Origin: Eledone cirrhosa
Lineage: Eukaryota
NCBI GenBank assembly: GCA_964016885.1
Contig: OZ024740.1
Coordinates: forward strand, 85,312,001-85,376,000
Direction of reading: 5' to 3'
DNA: 64,000 nucleotides
Of the stretch, positions 1,716 to 63,838 are shown piece after piece. How positions within the stretch are numbered: the first letter of the stretch is position 1; the number at the start of each line of letters is the position of its first letter. The notes below the pieces were generated by a model that worked only from the letters and a program-made list of their open reading frames with translations, searched no databases and had not been told where the DNA came from. The translations under genes and the position numbers were made by a program.

Positions 1716-2316
1716 TAATTCTTTCAGGTAAAAACAAATAACGAAACGAAATTAAATTTCGTTTCGTTTGTAACTCACTTTTGTATGACTGACGCTTAAA
1801 CAATTAAGTTAAAGATGTACATCCATATATGTATACTGAAATACTAGTATGTATATGAATACACACACGTATACATATGTAGATGTACCAAGTTTCGTTA
1901 TTTGTTTTTATCGTCTCCGTTGAACCGGTACTTACTCACACTCTGTGCGGATTAGTCTGCCCACTACTAATTTTCATAGAAAAAGCATATAACGATATGT
2001 GCTTTTACGATTCTCTAGAGAGGCCGGAAGATAGGTAAATATTGCTGATGAGTTGTAACAACAACGAAACTAGTTCAATATTCCTTGTCTGGCTTTCTGG
2101 AGAATAGAGGAAAGGTGTTTCCTCAAAAACCAGTATGACTCTAAAAACCGGTTTGTCTGTGTGTTTACATACAGAATAGCTGGCCACTCACAGTAAAGTG
2201 ACCAGTAAAAAAACTTGGTACATCTACATATGTATACGTGTGTGTATTCATATACATACTAGTATTTCAGTATACATATATGGATGTACATCTTTAACTT
2301 AATTCTTTCAGGTAAA
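1716..2316. mobile_element. Non-coding HHR-bearing fold-back element (retrozyme-like / non-autonomous PLE) with 17-bp TSD
   Basis: TAATTCTTTCAGGTAAA at 1716-1732 and 2300-2316; 1802-1893 is the inverted copy of 2213-2304; 1730-1747 is the inverted copy of 1892-1909; HHR at 2038-2082. Confidence 0.85.
2038..2082 (+). ncRNA. Minimal type-I hammerhead ribozyme
   Basis: Stem I AATATTG/CAATATT; CTGATGA; stem II GTTG-TAACAA-CAAC; GAAA; palindromic stem III CTAG; cleavage triplet GTT. Confidence 0.88.
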
Positions 2317-2602
2317 TTTGTTGCTTTTTTTTATGAACTTAACTAACATAGAGACAAGGTTAGAAACTTTGTAGAAAGGGAAAATCGTTATATCGATCTC
2401 AGTAGTTGATTGCGTACTTTATTTTATTTTCTCCGGAAAGACGAAAGGTAAAATTAATCTGGGCGGGATAGGTACTAAGAACGTAAAAAGCCATAACTTA
2501 ACATCGCAAAGTATTTTGTCCGACGCTCTAACGATTTTGCCAATTTACACTAATAAATTAAGTTCTCTGTAATTAATGCTTTCTCGATGGCTTAATTCTA
2601 GA

Positions 2603-3139
2603 TCAGGGTTTCCCAACCCTTGCGATTTCAACTGTTGGGTGGGTGATGAGCAACTGAACAGAAAATAGTGTTTCTACTTTTGGCACAAGGCCAGCGATTA
2701 TCCTAGCGCATTACTGGTACTTTATTTTATCGACCTCGTAAGGATGAAAGGCAAATTTAACCTCGGCAGATTTGAACTCAGAACGCAAAGGGCCATAACT
2801 ATGCTGCAAAGCATGGTATCTGACGCTCTACCGATACTGCCAAATCACCGCCCTACTGAACAGAAAATAGTGAGCAATTGGAAGTGTTGGTGGGCGATAT
2901 ATGATTTTGAGTATTTAAAAGGTTTTTCAACATATTCTACCAGAAAAAATAACCAAAGGTGATATGCAAAGAAACCCGTATAAAAAGAATAAACAGGAAG
3001 CTAAATAGGAATAACAAACCAGTAACAAACTTTTACCAAACATTTTTAATGTGCTTTTCAATATTTACTATACAGGTGGGCGGTGGAACATTTTCCATGC
3101 GAAAGTGGGCAATGATGCAAAACAGGTTGGGAACCCTTG
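2603..3139. mobile_element. hAT (Charlie/MER5-like) MITE with a nested SINE
   Basis: TIRs CAGGGTTTCCCAACC / GGTTGGGAACCCTTG; imperfect 8-bp flanks TTCTAGAT/TCCGAGAT. Confidence 0.65.
2671..2853 (-). mobile_element. SINE family A with 18-bp TSD
   Basis: Flanked by ACTGAACAGAAAATAGTG on both sides. Confidence 0.88.
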
Positions 3140-3696
3140 TCCGAGATTAAACTAGATTAACAAAAAAATATCGGTTGTAAATCGAATCAGCAAAATTAAA
3201 AACAGTACACACTAAAATATGTTTCAAATAGTCGTTATGTTTTACTGTGCGAATATAGATATATTACGAAATGGCCTGACTGTTAACGTAATGTAAACAT
3301 GTATACATGTTTCGTCCAAACAGCAATAAAATACATGCTAAGTCGTTTTTGTTAATTTTTGTTTTTCTTCGGAAATGGTACGGGAACACATATTTATTAC
3401 ACAGGTTTGGAAGAGAAATATTGTAATTATTTTGTTTGTTTACAATGATTGCGCAATTGTTTAATTCAGAACCGTTAGCCTTATGTAGTTGAATACATTT
3501 TAACTAATGTGTCTGCAATTAAAGTTTCTGGTAACTTTCACAGTCATGACTAAATTATAAATGATTAAGTTATAGTGTTGGACACTATCAAGACAGATCC
3601 GCTTGGCACTGAGCAACACCCATTGGAATTTTACCAAAATCACAGATCAATGTCATTCAAAAGAGTGTTTTTGAAATAGTTTCAATTATTAGACAA

Positions 3697-3839
<143 letters not shown>

Positions 3840-5854
3840 ATATATATTTATTTATGTATGTATTTATTGTAGAAGGTTATAATTATTGCAATTGCTGTTC
3901 ATCTATTATGAAACTTATGTCGTCTCTGTTTGGTTAATGGTATTGAAGTTGGAACTTCAAAACATTTTTGTCAGAAAAATATAACATTTTTACTTAAGAT
4001 AATCTCAACTAACTATCGTTACATAATTTTATTGCCTTCAAAGAAATAAAAAAATAATTCACTCGACAAAGTTCATGTTCTTAAAACTATACTCCATTAA
4101 CCTATACATTTCATTGTTGTACACGGTAGCAGCACAATAAAATCACTATTTTCGTTGTTATTTTTAGTTTACAATGCTTAGTTTAACACTTTTAATACTA
4201 AACCAAGGCGACGAATTAATAGAGTCTTTAGAATGCATTGCGTAAATTGGTAAATTCATCCCCATACGTTTTACCCAGAGAGTAAATACTGAACATAAAT
4301 TCAAGTTTTTATTCGCAGTGTAGGCGGCGAATTTGCAGAGTCATTAACAGTTCGGATGGAATGCTTTGCGGTATTTGTTTCGTCTCTGCGCTCAAATACT
4401 GCCGAGCTCAACTTTACCTTTCATCCTTTCGGCTGTGCTAAGATCTGGAGAGCTATAGGCTTCACCAGGTTTTAAAAAGTGTCCAAAACACCGTATGTCA
4501 TTATGGAAGAGTTATATGTCCATGCGTACAATAATACTAAACCATCTGAAACTGCTCCTGGTTCTATGACACAAAACTGTTTGTTTTAAAATGTTTATAT
4601 TTACCTAAAACTAAAAAAATCATCCATCATAAAGGACCTTTGTTAAGTTATATTTTACATACCAGCTTTATAGCAAGCGAAAGATGTTGCTAGTTTACTA
4701 AATCCTTAATTAATTTGTTTTCAAAATTAATTGAAATACGGCAAAGAAAGGGTTACATATTTCACGTAATTTTAGCTTAGATACCCTATAGTTATCAACT
4801 GTATCCCAACAGCTAATTGCTTAAAGAATAGTTAATCCAATTTAGCATAATATCTTCTTTTACTTTAAAAACAACTGTGGTACACGACTCCCTTTTCTAT
4901 CGTAAATCTATCACCGGATCACATTTTGTCTTGAAAACTTATTAATAACTACCATTTTTATGTCAATTGGTCACTGCTTAAATTTAGTTATTGTAATATA
5001 AATACTTTATATCAATCACTCTTTATTTAGTAAATTTTATTCCGCAAGACAAAATCTTAAAATTCTTGTATTTCTATTGGGGGTGGTGGTTATACCACCA
5101 ATCAAGGCATACGCACCGAGTGAGTTTCACTTGAGTTTTATTAATCAAATACTAATTAGTTGATCACCCAATCAATTAATTAATTAATTATCAAAGTCCT
5201 TCCACCACAGCCTGTGGCCTGATCGATGGCTATTGCTCTTCACCCCCACTTAACCTTTTCTTCCTCTTTCAGGGCGTTAATGAAGTCAGTAATACCAGAC
5301 ATGATATATGAGATGATTTTTAATAGAAAACTTGTAGTGAACAGCCCATTTTTTGTTTCGTTTCCTTTTTTTACCATAGCATATACGTTTCCAGAAAACA
5401 TCAGCCATTAAGTTCTTGAGTGATTATTTTTTCATGTCATATCCAGGTAGACATAAATCTTAGCATATCTAGAGATGGGAGAAATGAAAAGTATGATGAA
5501 TATTTCCTTACCTAAAAAAACATAAATGAAATGAAAACATATCAACGACCAGAAATCGAAACCAAGTTGTAGACTTGACTTCCTAGTAGCTTATATTCTT
5601 CTCTTCAATGTCGTCAACTGTCATATATCAAATATGGATGAATGATACGTTAAAAGCCGGATCCACCGTGATTATTCCCACACAGCTATAAACATGGTAA
5701 AATAATTTAAGTACTGTCGACATGTGAAAATAATATACTTGACAAAGAAATGTTGATGTATTAACAATAGAATGGGTGTTTCTTTTAATCACGCTTTTCT
5801 CTCAAAACTATGTTTTAGCCAGCTGAAGTACAAAAAACTACATTTTATGACTGC

Positions 5855-29935: not shown

Positions 29936-30278
29936 TATTGGGTTGTTAATTCACTGAGGAACTGGAGTCATATCCAGTTCCTCAGTGAATTAACAACCCA
30001 ACAAGGAACTGGGCATATCAGAGTATTGACAATATTATACACCTAAACAACATATGTACTTGTCTATACCATACTAATTCAAACTGCCTGAAGAGGTCAC
30101 AGCCAAAGATGGCTGTCACTGAAATATATATAGCAGTAATAAACGAAGCTAAATTTTAATCATTTGACTTTTATTTAACTTTATTTTACACTACTCCGGA
30201 GTAACCAAACCAACCTGCGCACTTCGTCGAGTGCTCCAGCCTGCATACTGAGGTGTTGGTATACAACCAACATAAACT

Positions 30279-30282
<4 letters not shown>
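29936..30282 (+). mobile_element. HHR-bearing PLE-derived element, copy A (short fold-back head)
   Basis: Hairpin 29938-30002, HHR 30083-30137, tail runs into (TA)n; homologous to 30380-30925. Confidence 0.85.
30083..30137 (+). ncRNA. Minimal type-I hammerhead ribozyme
   Basis: ACTGC-CTGAAGA-GGTCACAGCCA..TGGCTGTCACT-GAAA-TATATA-TA-GCAGT. Confidence 0.85.
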
Positions 30283-30358
<76 letters not shown>

Positions 30359-30379
30359 GTATATATATATATATATATA

Positions 30380-30925
30380 TTGAGTATATGCTGGTTGTCT
30401 ACCGACACCTCAGTATGTAGAATGGAGCACTCGACGAAGTACACAGGTTGATTTGTTTACTCCGGAGTAATGTAATATAATTAAGTGAAATATGTAAAAT
30501 TTGGCTTCGTTTCCTATAAATTATAGATATACTGCTATATATATTTCGGTGACAGCCATCATTGGCTGTGACCTCTTCAGGCAGTCCGAATTGGTGTGGG
30601 AAGGACAGGTACACATGTTGTTGAAGTGTGTTTTACTCCGTCAATACATCGATATGTCCAGCTCCTGGTTGTGCTATTATTTCTCCGAGGAACTGGAATC
30701 ATATCTTCCAGTTCCTCAGAGAAATAACAACGCAACCAGGAGCTGGACATATCGATGTATTGACGGAGTAAAACACACTTCAACAACATGTGTACCTGTC
30801 TTTCCCACACCAATTCGGACTGCCTGAAGAGGTCACAGCCAATGATGGCTGTCACCGAAATATATATAGCAGTATATCTATAATTTATAGTAAACGAAGC
30901 CAAATTTTACATATTTCACTTAATT
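30380..30925. mobile_element. HHR-bearing PLE-derived element, copy B, with about 220-bp fold-back arms
   Basis: Near-perfect palindrome 30479-30925 centred at about 30702; HHRs at 30531-30585 (-) and 30819-30873 (+). Confidence 0.9.
30819..30873 (+). ncRNA. Minimal type-I hammerhead ribozyme (mirror copy 30531-30585 on -)
   Basis: Stem I ACTGC/GCAGT, CTGAAGA, long stem II, GAAA, palindromic TATATA stem III. Confidence 0.85.
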
Positions 30926-31377
30926 ATTTTATATATATATATATACACACACACATATGTATATGTATATTTATGTATATATTTGTGTCTGTGTGTGTAT
31001 AAGAACAATGTTGTCAGAACTGACATCTATGCAATGCAATCTTCAATTGTCTGCTATGAGAACCACCCAGTTACGTTGCCTTCTTATGGGCTCCATCTCC
31101 CTTTCATCTCTTGGATCAGATATTTTCCTGTCAGATATTTCCATTGCTGCGTGCACTGATGAGGTCCTTCCCACCACACACACACGCGCGCAGCCACCCT
31201 TCACACATATACTCAGAGCCTAGTGTGCGCTTTACTGTTCTTTAATACAGACCACCCTCTATAACACTTAGGATTTTCCTGATGACGTCACCATCACAAA
31301 ATAATAACATAATAAATGTGAATACAGCAGTATATATTTAATAGTTATAATGACTTTACCACAAGGTACTACCGCCC

Positions 31378-47530: not shown

Positions 47531-47773
47531 CAAACACGTTAGCAACTACAAGGATAATTTCATCAAATAATTGCACAAGATATTAAACGATATTTAAAGG
47601 CTCTATAAGAGTTCATAAAAAATAAAAAAATTAATTTGATCTGTAAAACATTTATAATTGATAACAAAAGAATGTAAATACTCTCATGAAAATGTCTTTG
47701 AACGTACTGGACTTCCTAAGTAACAACCAATATGATAACTTGCTTCCAGCTGGTCGAACATTCTAGATTCATA

Positions 47774-47810
<37 letters not shown>

Positions 47811-47816
<6 letters not shown>

Positions 47817-48481
47817 GAAATAGGATTTCGCTTCAAGCATAGCCTTATACAATTTGTATAAATATTTCGTATTTCCAAAGAAATACGGTTTTAGGAAGCC
47901 GTAGCTATGCAAACCCCGGGGGCGGGGGGGCTAACGCCCCTTGGTGATGTCCAGCAGAAGCAAGGGGGACAACTGTCTATGCATTTCAGGCTTAACTGGC
48001 CATCGTCAGGACGGTTCCTCCCACTGCTTGCGACTGCTGGACTAGAAGACAGTCGAGAATATATAGTTTTCTCGTCTGTGTAAATGAGGTGATTAATCTC
48101 ATTTGCATATGAAGCTGCATAAGTTGGCTCAACTTATAATAAAAAAGAAATAGGATTTCGCTTCAAGCATAGCTTTATACAATTCTTTTTTATTATAAGT
48201 TGAGCCAACTTATGCAGCTTCATATGCAAATGAGATTAACCACCTCATTTACACAGAAAAGTATATATTCTCGCCTGTCTTCTAGTCCAGCAGTCGCAAT
48301 CGGTGGGAGGGACCGTCCTGACGATGGCCAGTTAAGCCTGAAATGCATAGACGGTTGTCCCCCTTGCTTCTTTCTGCTGGACATCACCAGAGGGCGTTAG
48401 CCCCCCCCCCCCCCCCGCCCCCGGTATTTGCATAGCTACGGCTTCCTAAAACCATATTTCTTTGGAGATACGAAATATTTA
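47811..48481. mobile_element. Retrozyme-like fold-back element, 330-nt monomer, in (TA)n
   Basis: 47856-48145 is the inverted copy of 48186-48481; direct repeat TAGGATTTCGCTTCAAGCATAGC at 47821 and 48151; HHRs 47971-48016 (-) and 48311-48356 (+). Confidence 0.88.
48311..48356 (+). ncRNA. Minimal type-I hammerhead ribozyme
   Basis: GACCGTC-CTGACGA-T-GGC CAGTTAA GCC-T-GAAA-TGCA-TA-GACGGTT. Confidence 0.85.
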
Positions 48482-48562
48482 TATATATATATATTTATTT
48501 ATTTAGGTCTGTTGGGTCACCACTGGATAGAACTGGTCATTCCGTATGGTCAACCTCGATGT

Positions 48563-48627
48563 AATATTACCTGATGATATCACCGGATTCACACTGAACC
48601 CGGTCATTGAAATGATCATAGTATAAT
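48563..48627 (+). ncRNA. Type-I hammerhead ribozyme in a separate short element (48500-48670)
   Basis: CTGATGA, stem II ACCGG/CCGGT, GAAA, palindromic TGATCA, TA, weak stem I TAC/GTA. Confidence 0.65.
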
Positions 48628-48682
48628 AAACCTTTTAATGAATTACACCAGTCCAGCCTCCTGTTATTTTATAATATATATA

Positions 48683-48834
48683 TATATTTGAAAAAAAAAG
48701 GAAAAGAATGACTTCACTTGTAGTGTTAAAAGATTTTTTAATTTAATTTTATAATATTATAATATTATAAAATTAAATCAAAGATTTTTTTAACACTACA
48801 AGTGAAGTGATTCTTTTCCTTTTTTTCAAATATA
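48683..48834. repeat. AT-rich imperfect palindrome (about 75-bp arms)
   Basis: GAAAAAAAAAGGAAAAGAATGACTTCACTTGTAGTGTTAAAA versus TTTTAACACTACAAGTGAAGTGATTCTTTTCCTTTTTTTC. Confidence 0.85.
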
Positions 48835-49057
48835 CCTAACTGTACTAAGGATCTTACACATTTTCCAATATATACTAATAACAAAAAGGACGAAGTGTTA
48901 GGTCTTCATTACGTTTATTGAGGTGTGACGCGCGTTTCGCGACTGATCAGCTCAAAGTACAATCTGTATCGATCTGGTCCGACTCTGGAATTAAAAGGTC
49001 GTCGGACTTCTGTTATGGTAATGACAGAATACAATCGCTAAATATATATATATATAT

Positions 49058-60678: not shown

Positions 60679-60945
60679 GTATAGATATATGTATATATGT
60701 ATATATATATGTATATATATAAATGAAGTATTTCCGTCGGGAAGGTACAGGAAAAAAGAGTGCTCTACGTAGGCTACAGAGCTTATTAGTTATGTAATAA
60801 ACAACATAAGATAATTATTTCATTTACCAGTGGTTTCTTGAAGGCAGATGTTATGTCTGTCTTCAATCGTCAGAATGAATAAATAACATGGTGTTTTTAT
60901 TATATATGGATTTGAAAACAATATATATATATCTATATATCTATA

Positions 60946-62596: not shown

Positions 62597-63838
62597 TATA
62601 ATTTTGAAAAAATGAAACGAAATTTCATTTCTCACTCTTAGTACGGCTGTTACTTAAATATAAGTATGTATACGTACATACATATATGTATACAGACGTA
62701 CAGTAGTATGTATATATATATACATACATGCACACATATATATATGTACGTATGGATTCATCGAACATTTATTATAATGCTCGGTGTGTTTGTAAACAAA
62801 CATCCCGAATTAAGCCGTACAGTGTCTAGCAACCATCGTTGCCCTTTTGTTCAACACTGACAAAGGAACGATGTACTAGTTTCAAGCTTATTAGCTATCG
62901 TCAGCAACGTATACCTTCCTGCCAGATGATTGAACGTCTGAAAGTATATACTTTCCTTATGCATATTAACGGCTGGGCAGCCTAATTTGCATATCGAGTG
63001 AGTTAATCGGCCAGGGTACCGAAAACGATAAACGGAAAAAATGAAACGAAATTTCATTTCTCACTCTTAGTACGGCTGTTACTTAAATATAAGTATGTAT
63101 ACGTACATACATATATGTATAAAGACGTACAGTAGTATGTATATATATATACAGACGATAGCTAATAAGCTTGAAACTAGTACAGCGTTCCTTTGTCAGG
63201 GTTGAACAAATGAGCAACGATGGTTGCTAGACACTGTACGGCTTAATTCGGGATGTTTGTTTACAAACACACCGAGCATTATAATAAATGTTCGATGAAT
63301 CCATACGTACATATATATATATGTGTGCATGTATGTATATATATATACATACTACTGTACGTCTGTATATATATATGTATGTACGTATACATACTTATAT
63401 TTAAGTAACAGCCGTACTAAGAGTGAGAAATGAAATTTCGTTTCATTTTTTCGGTTTATCGTTTTCGGTACCCCGGCCGATTAACTCACTCGATATGCAA
63501 ATTAGCCTGCTCAGCCGTTAATATGCATAAGGAAAGTATATACTTTCAGACGTTCATTCATCTGGCAGGAAGGTATACGTTGCTGACGATAGCTAATAAG
63601 CTTGAAACTAGTACAGCGTTCCTTTGTCAGGGTTGAACAAATGAGCAACGATGGTTGCTAGACACTGTACGGCTTAATTCGTGATGTTTGTTTACAAACA
63701 CACCGAGCATTATAATAAATGTTCGGTGAATCCATACGTACATATATATATGTGTGCATGTATGTATATATATATACATACTACTGTATGTCTGTATACA
63801 TATATGTATGTACGTATACATACTTATATATATAATTT
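62597..63838. mobile_element. Retrozyme-like tandem + inverted element, about 430-nt monomer
   Basis: About 1.25 units on - (62605-63152) then about 1.55 units on + (63154-63829); HHRs at 62868-62910 (-), 63154-63188 (partial, +), 63577-63619 (+); TATAATTT on both flanks. Confidence 0.9.
63577..63619 (+). ncRNA. Minimal type-I hammerhead ribozyme
   Basis: ACGTTG-CTGACGA-T-AGCT AATA AGCT-T-GAAA-CTAG-TA-CAGCGT. Confidence 0.88.

Follow-up and report, generated by a model that had tools for sequence, protein, structure and literature searches.

A two-armed, hammerhead-bearing retrozyme insertion in a TA microsatellite of Eledone cirrhosa, likely made by a PLE reverse transcriptase

The DNA analysed here, referred to throughout as the window, is a 64,000-nt stretch of the Eledone cirrhosa genome, and the locus of interest occupies positions 47811–48483 within it. 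Unit numbering follows the minus strand, with unit position 1 at window 48140 and position 330 at window 47811. On that strand, 47811–48184 holds 1.13 turns of a 330-nt non-coding unit (unit 287–330, then 1–330), as delimited by repeat and alignment; this 374-nt segment, the A arm, has its 3′ end at site A (..TTTCTCTTTT, position 330 = 47811). The surplus over one turn appears as a minus-strand direct repeat of 46 nt, 47809–47854 against 48139–48184, with a spacing of exactly 330 and 96% identity. Its first copy is the 'tail' segment (unit ~287–330); the second, 95.5% identical to unit 287–330, is the end of the preceding turn, and it is at the inner end of this second copy that the A arm is 5′-truncated. 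In the alignment the A arm spans 376 nt at 99% identity, a value set by construction, since the arm is there matched to itself.

A second arm of ~300 nt follows on the plus strand at 48183–48483. Alignment identified this B arm as an inverted, permuted copy of about 0.9 turn (unit ~322–330, then 1–284), which crosses the unit boundary, lacks the last 44–46 nt of the unit, that is, the tail, and has its 3′ end at site B. The inverted-repeat arms, 47852–48149 and 48183–48488, pair in three pieces that are 92–99% complementary piecewise, and the inverted arm matches the 330-nt unit at 89% identity over 298 nt, with 90% in the unit 1–284 part. A sequence-only reading of this DNA had described a terminally redundant minus-strand unit with a period of exactly 330, followed by an inverted copy, and the repeat and arm coordinates bear out both parts of that description. 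The two arms are ~90% alike and their inner ends are unequal, at unit 287 in the A arm and ~322 in the B arm. They meet in a head-to-head joint at 48181–48191, where sequence reading shows a shared AATT/ATT of 2–4 nt. The outer ends of both arms adjoin (TA)n: a microsatellite at 47775–47811 forms the target flank next to the A end, and a (TA)n or TA-rich flank at 48484–48505 adjoins the B end, both delimited by sequence reading.

The absence of an ORF, also part of the earlier description, was confirmed in that no ATG ORF longer than 62 aa overlaps 47811–48481, and a Pfam search of 22 window ORFs returned one weak MFS match and nothing useful. The G+C content of the unit is 44.2%, and the words ACTC and GAGT do not occur in it. 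Elsewhere in the window, two or more other hammerhead-like families lie at 30039–30934 and 62606–63832; these are likewise head-to-head and sit in TA/TG microsatellites.

Each arm carries one hammerhead motif. The pattern CTGACGA-15 nt-GAAATGCATA matched exactly twice in the 64-kb window, at 48009–47978 on the minus strand and 48318–48349 on the plus strand, and 0 times in 100 shuffles; our own generic type I descriptor found 9 motifs in the window, both arms included, against 0.04 per shuffled window. In the A arm, motif and fold place the core at 47978–48009 (−), comprising CUGACGA, helix II, GAAA, a UGCA tetraloop and UA, with the cut predicted after 47978 (unit 163). The corresponding core of the B arm, located by motif and alignment, occupies 48318–48349 (+). 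In the circular MFE fold, the A-arm hammerhead is held within a long hairpin at 47951–48042 (−; unit 99–190) that extends helix I.

Both motifs had been called intact, and all 13 core positions are indeed present in both window arms; the surrounding stems qualify that description. Both arms carry U at position 10.1, producing a U.U mismatch (10.1/11.1) at the base of helix II, and the minus-strand arm has a C.A mismatch in helix I. Across 120 aligned family copies, the counts at position 10.1 are 90 A, 27 T, 2 C and 1 G, giving an A-U pair in 90/120. Helix II of the family majority sequence consists of 4 bp (A-U, G-C, G-C, C-G) closed by a 7-nt loop, and its helix I is long and interrupted, running on into the hairpin at unit 99–190. 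Helix III is a single A15.1-U16.1 pair plus the palindromic tetraloop UGCA, and is thus not a stable helix III. Because the window arms are only ~90% alike and carry these ribozyme stem mismatches, the window copy, which is old and decayed, most likely represents a dead daughter insertion, as opposed to a source copy.

Conservation across the same 120 copies was then quantified. The core is fully intact in 89 of them, and conservation per cell is 97% in the core columns, compared with 96% elsewhere in the alignment. The hammerhead–hairpin pairs are kept in 93.3% of cells against 27–45% when the pairing is slid, a figure to be read with the structure having been derived from the same sequence. 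Covariation in the stems was equal to that in shuffles, as is expected for decaying copies of one master, and RNAalifold on the 120 copies predicted only 3 pairs. At Rfam gathering scores no hammerhead family was matched in the window, and at E ≤ 10 none was matched in window 47600–48700 or in positions 1540–1740 of a majority-type copy (L065). The E ≤ 10 matches at the locus are all sub-threshold and belong to plant miRNA-hairpin and other models; the miRNA-hairpin matches arise because such models simply score a long palindromic hairpin. On the strength of motif and fold, we classify the motif as a hammerhead of the weak-helix-III type, a putative ribozyme.

The unit belongs to a dispersed family. 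The 3.0-Gb genome was searched twice, yielding 2463 and 2593 first-look candidates, and 40/40 of those scored matched in each; the copies are scattered over many contigs, and Logan contigs, which are short and of unspecified library kind, agree with a high-copy family and with the majority variants. The sequencing runs listed as containing the unit included none of RNA. Three samples were drawn by query (the whole unit, its last 70 nt, and a 563-nt arm), and after removal of 5 duplicate loci they comprised 85 loci, in which 143 arms reach 60 nt or more. Decay amounts to ~4–5% per family copy.

The 3′ ends of the arms fall mostly at two places: site A (..CCTATTTCTTTT, position 330) accounts for 76 of the 143, site B (..CGAAATATTTATA(CA), ~284–287) for 47, and 20 end elsewhere, an A:B ratio that is biased because the samples were picked by similarity to the queries. 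Sites A and B are 44–46 nt apart. The 5′ ends occur all along the unit; arm lengths, subject to the same sampling bias, range from 67 to 1337 nt, with 5/143 arms above 660 nt and 138/143 below. A G+C-rich hairpin with a C-run (unit 201–227; 47914–47940, −), recognised from fold and ends, is a hot spot for family 5′ ends, a cluster that is partly prone to alignment error. Two copies are array-like, with ~10 units (L111) and 2.65 units (L063), and the ~10-turn arm ends at B. A permutation analysis had been suggested earlier, with fixed linear ends in all copies, together with an absence of circular RNA, named as what would refute the sequence-only reading. In the event the 3′ ends are fixed, 123/143 at A or B, and the 5′ ends vary; fixed 3′ ends are no valid refutation, since PLE reverse transcription starts at fixed internal RNA sites (PMC11167929).

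A head-to-head joint is present in 50/85 loci, and single arms make up 33/85 (26 ending at A, 5 at B and 2 elsewhere). Of the 60 adjacent arm pairs, 55 meet head to head and 1 tail to tail; in the other 4 both arms lie on one strand. Both ends could be classed in 39 pairs, and 37 of these combine one A end with one B end, against 1 A/A and 1 B/B (binomial p = 1.4e-9 vs 0.5). At the 50 joints, the arms overlap by 1–9 nt in 25 cases, are flush in 3, and have 1–36 nt between them in 22. A (TA)≥4 tract adjoins 64/76 A ends, 32/47 B ends and 4/20 other ends, against 115/1530 control windows (7.5%).

The circular MFE fold of the unit (−103.2 kcal/mol, z = −6.4 vs mononucleotide shuffles) places a hairpin at each of the two sites. 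On a continuous template, an 8-bp hairpin (hairpin A, AUAAGUUG-AGC-CAACUUAU; unit 4–22; 48119–48137, −) stands 3 nt past end A; it is paired in 98% of copies. End B falls inside a 7-bp hairpin (hairpin B, UUAUACA-AAU-UGUAUAA; unit 280–296; 47845–47861, −), at the top of its 5′ strand, and this hairpin is paired in 96% of copies; B-type arms end at ~284–287 within that strand. Across this 96–98% pairing the two hairpins show no covariation. A CGAAAT word occurs 9–14 nt ahead of both ends, and the hairpins and the word might guide the enzyme. Two other causes of the ends were considered. Microhomology to the target was ruled out as the setter of ends, because the only (TA)3 stretch in the unit (76–82) is not an end site. 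Pol III termination at the T4 run (327–330) was set aside as the cause of end A, as 96/143 arms read through it.

We then asked what the arms reveal of their template. The predicted cut site 163/164 is crossed by 126/143 arms (164 crossings), 5′ ends fall at 161–167 in only 2, and the 120-copy alignment has no gap column at the cut-site junction. The template therefore ran unbroken through the predicted cut site, whether by religation or because it had stayed uncut, and use of a linear unit-length RNA by run-off is unlikely. The sequence-only reading had invoked reverse transcription more than once round a circle. Copying past one unit is supported by the 96/143 arms that cross the unit boundary 330/1; as template, we give the circle itself about the same odds as an uncleaved multimer. 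Successive turns of one arm are 91.2% identical and share 56/974 rare variants, making them as diverged as unrelated copies.

To characterise possible enzyme sources, the genome was searched for PLEs. A GIY-YIG search returned 10595 first-look candidates, and 150/150 of those scored passed the Pfam cut-off. [quoted passage not shown] When the unit was compared with 20 PLE loci drawn from the more than 10,000 candidates, no similarity was found except one 31-nt match at E = 0.03, and hammerhead-like motifs near three long PLE ORFs showed no link to the unit. Among the 24 of 165 flank ORFs scanned by Pfam, none beside the units carries GIY-YIG; 2 carry RVT_1 and 2 carry zf-RVT, all ~1 kb off. 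Within these 20 PLE loci and 24 flank ORFs, then, no autonomous partner element of the 330-nt family was found.

The closest known elements are the metazoan non-LTR retrozymes (Cervera and de la Pena 2020, PMC7229834). These have units of 170–400 nt, G+C below 50% and a type I motif per unit, their copies exceed one unit, and PLEs co-exist with them in the genome. The 330-nt family shares all of these features, and its unit length lies within that size range, as the sequence-only reading had stated. The kind of element is therefore already known, and the 330-nt unit is a new family within it. Several features set it apart. The described elements form tandem arrays, from dimers to 62-mers, whereas copies here mostly hold fewer than 2 units and 50/85 loci are mirror images; the described elements are shown as circular RNA, whereas the 330-nt family is known here from DNA alone (PMC7229834). 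In the portion of that paper's text covered here, the words 'inverted' and 'microsatellite' occur 0 times, and inverted arms, fixed ends and a TA target go undescribed. Papers on hammerhead or retrozyme elements of octopus or cephalopods were absent from the matches listed.

A hammerhead of similar build is described in amphibians. HHR_Amex1 of the axolotl has a one-pair helix III and a palindromic tetraloop and cleaves well only as a dimer; this dimer-dependent type has been ascribed to amphibians, and efficient single motifs to invertebrates (PMC7229834). The newt and axolotl satellite-2-type repeats that carry HHR_Amex1 also share the ~330 bp unit, a comparison made by description only, and the U.U mismatch that both window arms show where helix II begins is described for HHR_Amex2 (PMC7229834). 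Plant LTR retrozymes are likewise non-autonomous and hammerhead-bearing, with spread via circular RNA proposed (PMC4918200). They differ in having type III hammerheads in ~350-bp LTRs, a PBS, a PPT, 4-bp TSDs and Gypsy-type mobilisation (PMC7229834), none of which was seen here.

The insertions, as distinct from the unit, resemble those of PLEs. PLE insertions are highly 5′-truncated partial tandems, often with an inverted 5′-truncated copy at the 5′ end, and carry a 30–40-bp tail, often at one end only; (TA)n targeting is found in Naiad and Hydra PLEs, and Hydra, like other PLEs, universally carries canonical hammerheads (Craig et al. 2021, PMC8557442). Biochemically, a purified PLE protein nicks and extends both DNA strands, prefers AT-rich DNA, and initiates reverse transcription at a pair of neighbouring sites inside its RNA, which bound the tail and have no homology to the target; hammerhead cleavage is dispensable for it in vitro (Frangieh et al. 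2024, PMC11167929). PLEs have also been put forward as likely to mobilise the retrozymes of animals (PMC7229834; Li, Clavereau and Pollet 2026, bioRxiv 10.64898/2026.07.22.740005).

The window locus reproduces this pattern point by point, with a tail of 44–46 nt. In the family, arm 5′ starts over the whole unit, together with partial tandems, constitute the 5′ truncation of a PLE-type insertion, and the inverted 5′-truncated copy, the tail at one end, the two start sites and the (TA)n target are each present as well. 5′ truncation, partial tandem structure, a 5′-side inverted copy, a one-end extension, (TA)n and two fixed starts are all shared with EN-bearing PLE insertions (PMC8557442, PMC11167929). 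Differences remain in that the 330-nt unit is the whole element, without an RT/EN ORF, and in that its extension of 44–46 nt is slightly above the 30–40 bp of PLEs (PMC8557442). The pairing of one A with one B in 37/39 cases was not found stated in the covered parts of the PLE literature (PMC8557442, PMC11167929); in PMC11167929 no difference in start site between the strands is reported, so the one-of-each rule is not predicted by it. As to the enzyme, nearly all families of the Hydra clade of PLEs, which have a C-terminal EN, insert in (TA)n, hammerheads are universal in the clade, and it occurs in aquatic invertebrates including molluscs (PMC8557442). By analogy, and for these three reasons, a Hydra-clade PLE would be a plausible enzyme source for the 330-nt family.

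Taken together, we consider it likely that the locus is a two-armed non-coding retrozyme insertion in (TA)n, produced by a PLE reverse transcriptase primed from both DNA ends. Under the mechanism we propose, the unit RNA would be transcribed from multi-unit copies, and its hammerheads would cut in pairs, since helix III is only one base pair plus a palindromic tetraloop; the product would perhaps then be ligated to a circle. A PLE ribonucleoprotein would nick both strands of a TA repeat, and the two 3′-OH ends would prime at separate sites, one at A and one at B, 44–46 bases apart, on a template continuous across the cut site. Each cDNA would halt at a variable point, here after 374 and ~300 nt, and the arms would then be joined head to head, often via microhomology of 1–9 nt.

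That each locus records a single event rests mainly on orientation and the A/B rule. Sequence comparison adds at best a slight signal, arms within a locus hardly exceeding arms of different loci in similarity: median arm identity is 92.5% within a locus against 91.1% between loci, the proportion of rare variants shared is 4.5% for arms of one locus and 1.1% for unrelated arms, and 11/39 pairs lie above the between-locus 95th percentile for shared rare variants. The two arms of the window copy share 1/20 rare variants. Comparisons between arms or between turns cannot tell one template from two, because the family is too old.

The most serious competitor keeps the PLE-type insertion and changes the RNA: the template would be a linear multimer, transcribed from a genomic array and left uncleaved, such as has been proposed for PLE mRNAs, and not a circle. 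We give this reading nearly an even chance. Genomic arrays of the kind required exist in the ~10-unit and 2.65-unit copies, a hammerhead that requires a partner through its one-pair helix III would often remain uncut, and the 138/143 arms below 660 nt mean that most run for under 2 turns. Against it, most genomic copies are too short to yield multi-unit transcripts, and related animal retrozymes accumulate mainly as circles (PMC7229834); the turn-to-turn values given above (91.2%, 56/974) do not separate the two templates.

A second alternative is the fold-back that the sequence-only reading itself had favoured, in which reverse transcriptase runs 1.13 times round a circular RNA and the cDNA then snaps back and copies itself. 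It has some attractions, in that the order of sequence in the arms follows that of a template either circular or tandem (96/143 cross the unit boundary and 126/143 the cut site), half of the joints show the 1–9 nt overlap that a template switch would leave, and circRNA templates have been proposed for retrozymes (PMC7229834). A snapped-back copy would, however, be a mirror image of the first arm, starting at the turn and running outward. Instead, the inner ends in the window lie at 287 and ~322, 37/39 pairs have one outer end at A and one at B, and the B arm stops 44–46 nt short of the expected end of a copy of the A arm; 22/50 joints also contain filler of 1–36 nt. The fold-back of a single cDNA is thus contradicted by both sets of ends, and we regard it as improbable.

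Two separate family insertions, side by side in one TA microsatellite, are very improbable. Targeting of (TA)n makes repeated strikes on one microsatellite expected, and the window arms, only ~90% alike with 1/20 rare variants shared, would suit independent origins, but all four orientations would then be expected instead of the 55 head-to-head, 1 tail-to-tail and 4 same-strand pairs observed (p = 1e-27 vs 0.25), A and B ends would combine at random and not in 37/39 mixed pairs, and 28/50 joints have no spacer. A DNA-level origin, as a foldback or MITE transposon with long inverted repeats or as a satellite rearranged by replication or recombination, deserves equally little credence: the locus is a long imperfect palindrome, and its only sub-threshold Rfam matches are plant miRNA-hairpin models scoring the long hairpin, but the arms are unequal in length with variable inner ends, the outer ends are asymmetric (A vs B) and hence form no terminal inverted repeats, single arms are frequent (33/85 loci), the arms are 5′-truncated circular permutations of one unit, and the copies are spread across many contigs.

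Insertion by a PLE reverse transcriptase primed from both DNA ends therefore remains the likely reading, and it can be taken one step further, tentatively and at somewhat less probability than the linear-multimer template. A dimeric Penelope-type enzyme may hold a single, probably circular, retrozyme RNA at its two start sites and lay down one cDNA per strand of the TA repeat, with one event per insertion. If so, every insertion would receive exactly one tailed and one tail-less end, explaining the long-puzzling one-sided tail of PLEs, and a dimer-dependent, amphibian-type hammerhead would be using the same machinery in a very different animal.

The copying of animal retrozymes into DNA by PLEs has so far been proposed, and the 330-nt family contributes evidence for it that can be counted: start sites are fixed, a two-armed insertion uses each of them once (37/39), the target is TA, and the cut site is read through (126/143). 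The one-A-one-B count is the part that a specialist might use, and the family supplies a defined 330-nt RNA for bench work on start choice by PLE reverse transcriptase. For annotation of the Eledone cirrhosa genome, hairpin-shaped repeats beside TA microsatellites would accordingly be read as retro-insertions, and not as DNA transposons or miRNA-like hairpins.

The 5′ ends of the arms of the 330-nt family, an arm being one continuous run of the unit, clustered at unit positions 216–224 and 188–192. The first cluster lies on the 3′ side of the G+C-rich hairpin and its C-run, and is partly an effect of alignment, the C-run being variable; the second sits at the foot of the hammerhead hairpin, on its 3′ side. 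Three arms had 5′ ends at 218–220 in one alignment and at 189–191 in another. Clusters at such folded sites would fit reverse transcriptase stalling on folded RNA.

A single plus-strand arm at the genomic locus L111 (positions 2131–5435; G000:C2:83920630–83923934) repeated the 330-nt unit for approximately 10 turns before ending at site B, one of the two usual 3′ ends of the family. Its units were 86–92% identical to the unit in the window, and the same internal deletion, of unit positions 193–254 with the G+C-rich hairpin, was found at two places in the arm.

Two further repeat families with hammerhead-like motifs were present in the window. A non-coding element with a period of approximately 430 nt occupies 62606–63832, with (TA)n/(TG)n tracts on both sides; its direct repeats are spaced 429–431 nt apart, and its 502-nt inverted arms show 97% complementarity. 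Our generic type I hammerhead descriptor placed its motifs at 62874–62904 on the minus strand and 63583–63613 on the plus strand. This element shares the head-to-head shape of the 330-nt window copy and is far younger. The third hammerhead-like family, characterized by CTGAAGAGGTCAC..GAAA, was located at 30039–30934, with motifs at 30088 (+), 30536 (−), and 30824 (+), inverted arms of 229 nt that are 97% complementary across a 7-nt gap, and an adjoining long (TA)n tract. Two isolated matches to the generic descriptor were also recorded, at 2045–2075 (+) and 60825–60873 (−); a strict version of the descriptor gave no match in 100 shuffles.

Immediately to the right of the TA flank of the 330-nt insertion, window positions 48488–48672 are occupied by a very high-copy repeat, which may be a SINE-like element. 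Its summed contig depth in sequencing run X1 reached approximately 5.6 × 10^5, several times the depth seen for the 330-nt unit, and a break at 48568/48569, inside the repeat, was common to many contigs. A palindrome follows at 48672–48847, bordered by TA-rich sequence; its two 88-nt arms are 83% complementary and directly adjoin each other.

Among the loci with reverse transcriptase frames, L103 (2775–6062; G000:C1:83812774–83816061) contained a 1096-aa open frame in which an RVT_1 domain was recognized, surrounded by long TA/TG microsatellites and positioned approximately 1.5 Mb ahead of the window. Pfam analysis of the translated frame did not recover GIY-YIG, although the genome search for that endonuclease domain had picked the locus. 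L104 and L105, on separate contigs, carried RT(+EN) ORFs with near-identical 3′ flanks downstream of the stops, which contain CA-rich tandem repeats of approximately 200 nt built around a short (TA)n core; the two loci are a single Penelope-like element family.

At the 330-nt family locus L088, the arms at 1398–1497 (−) and 1787–1886 (+) had in common a double change in hammerhead helix II, from C–G to U–A, that kept the pairing. Because both arms share this pair-keeping change, their sequences hint that the arms of one locus can share a template lineage.
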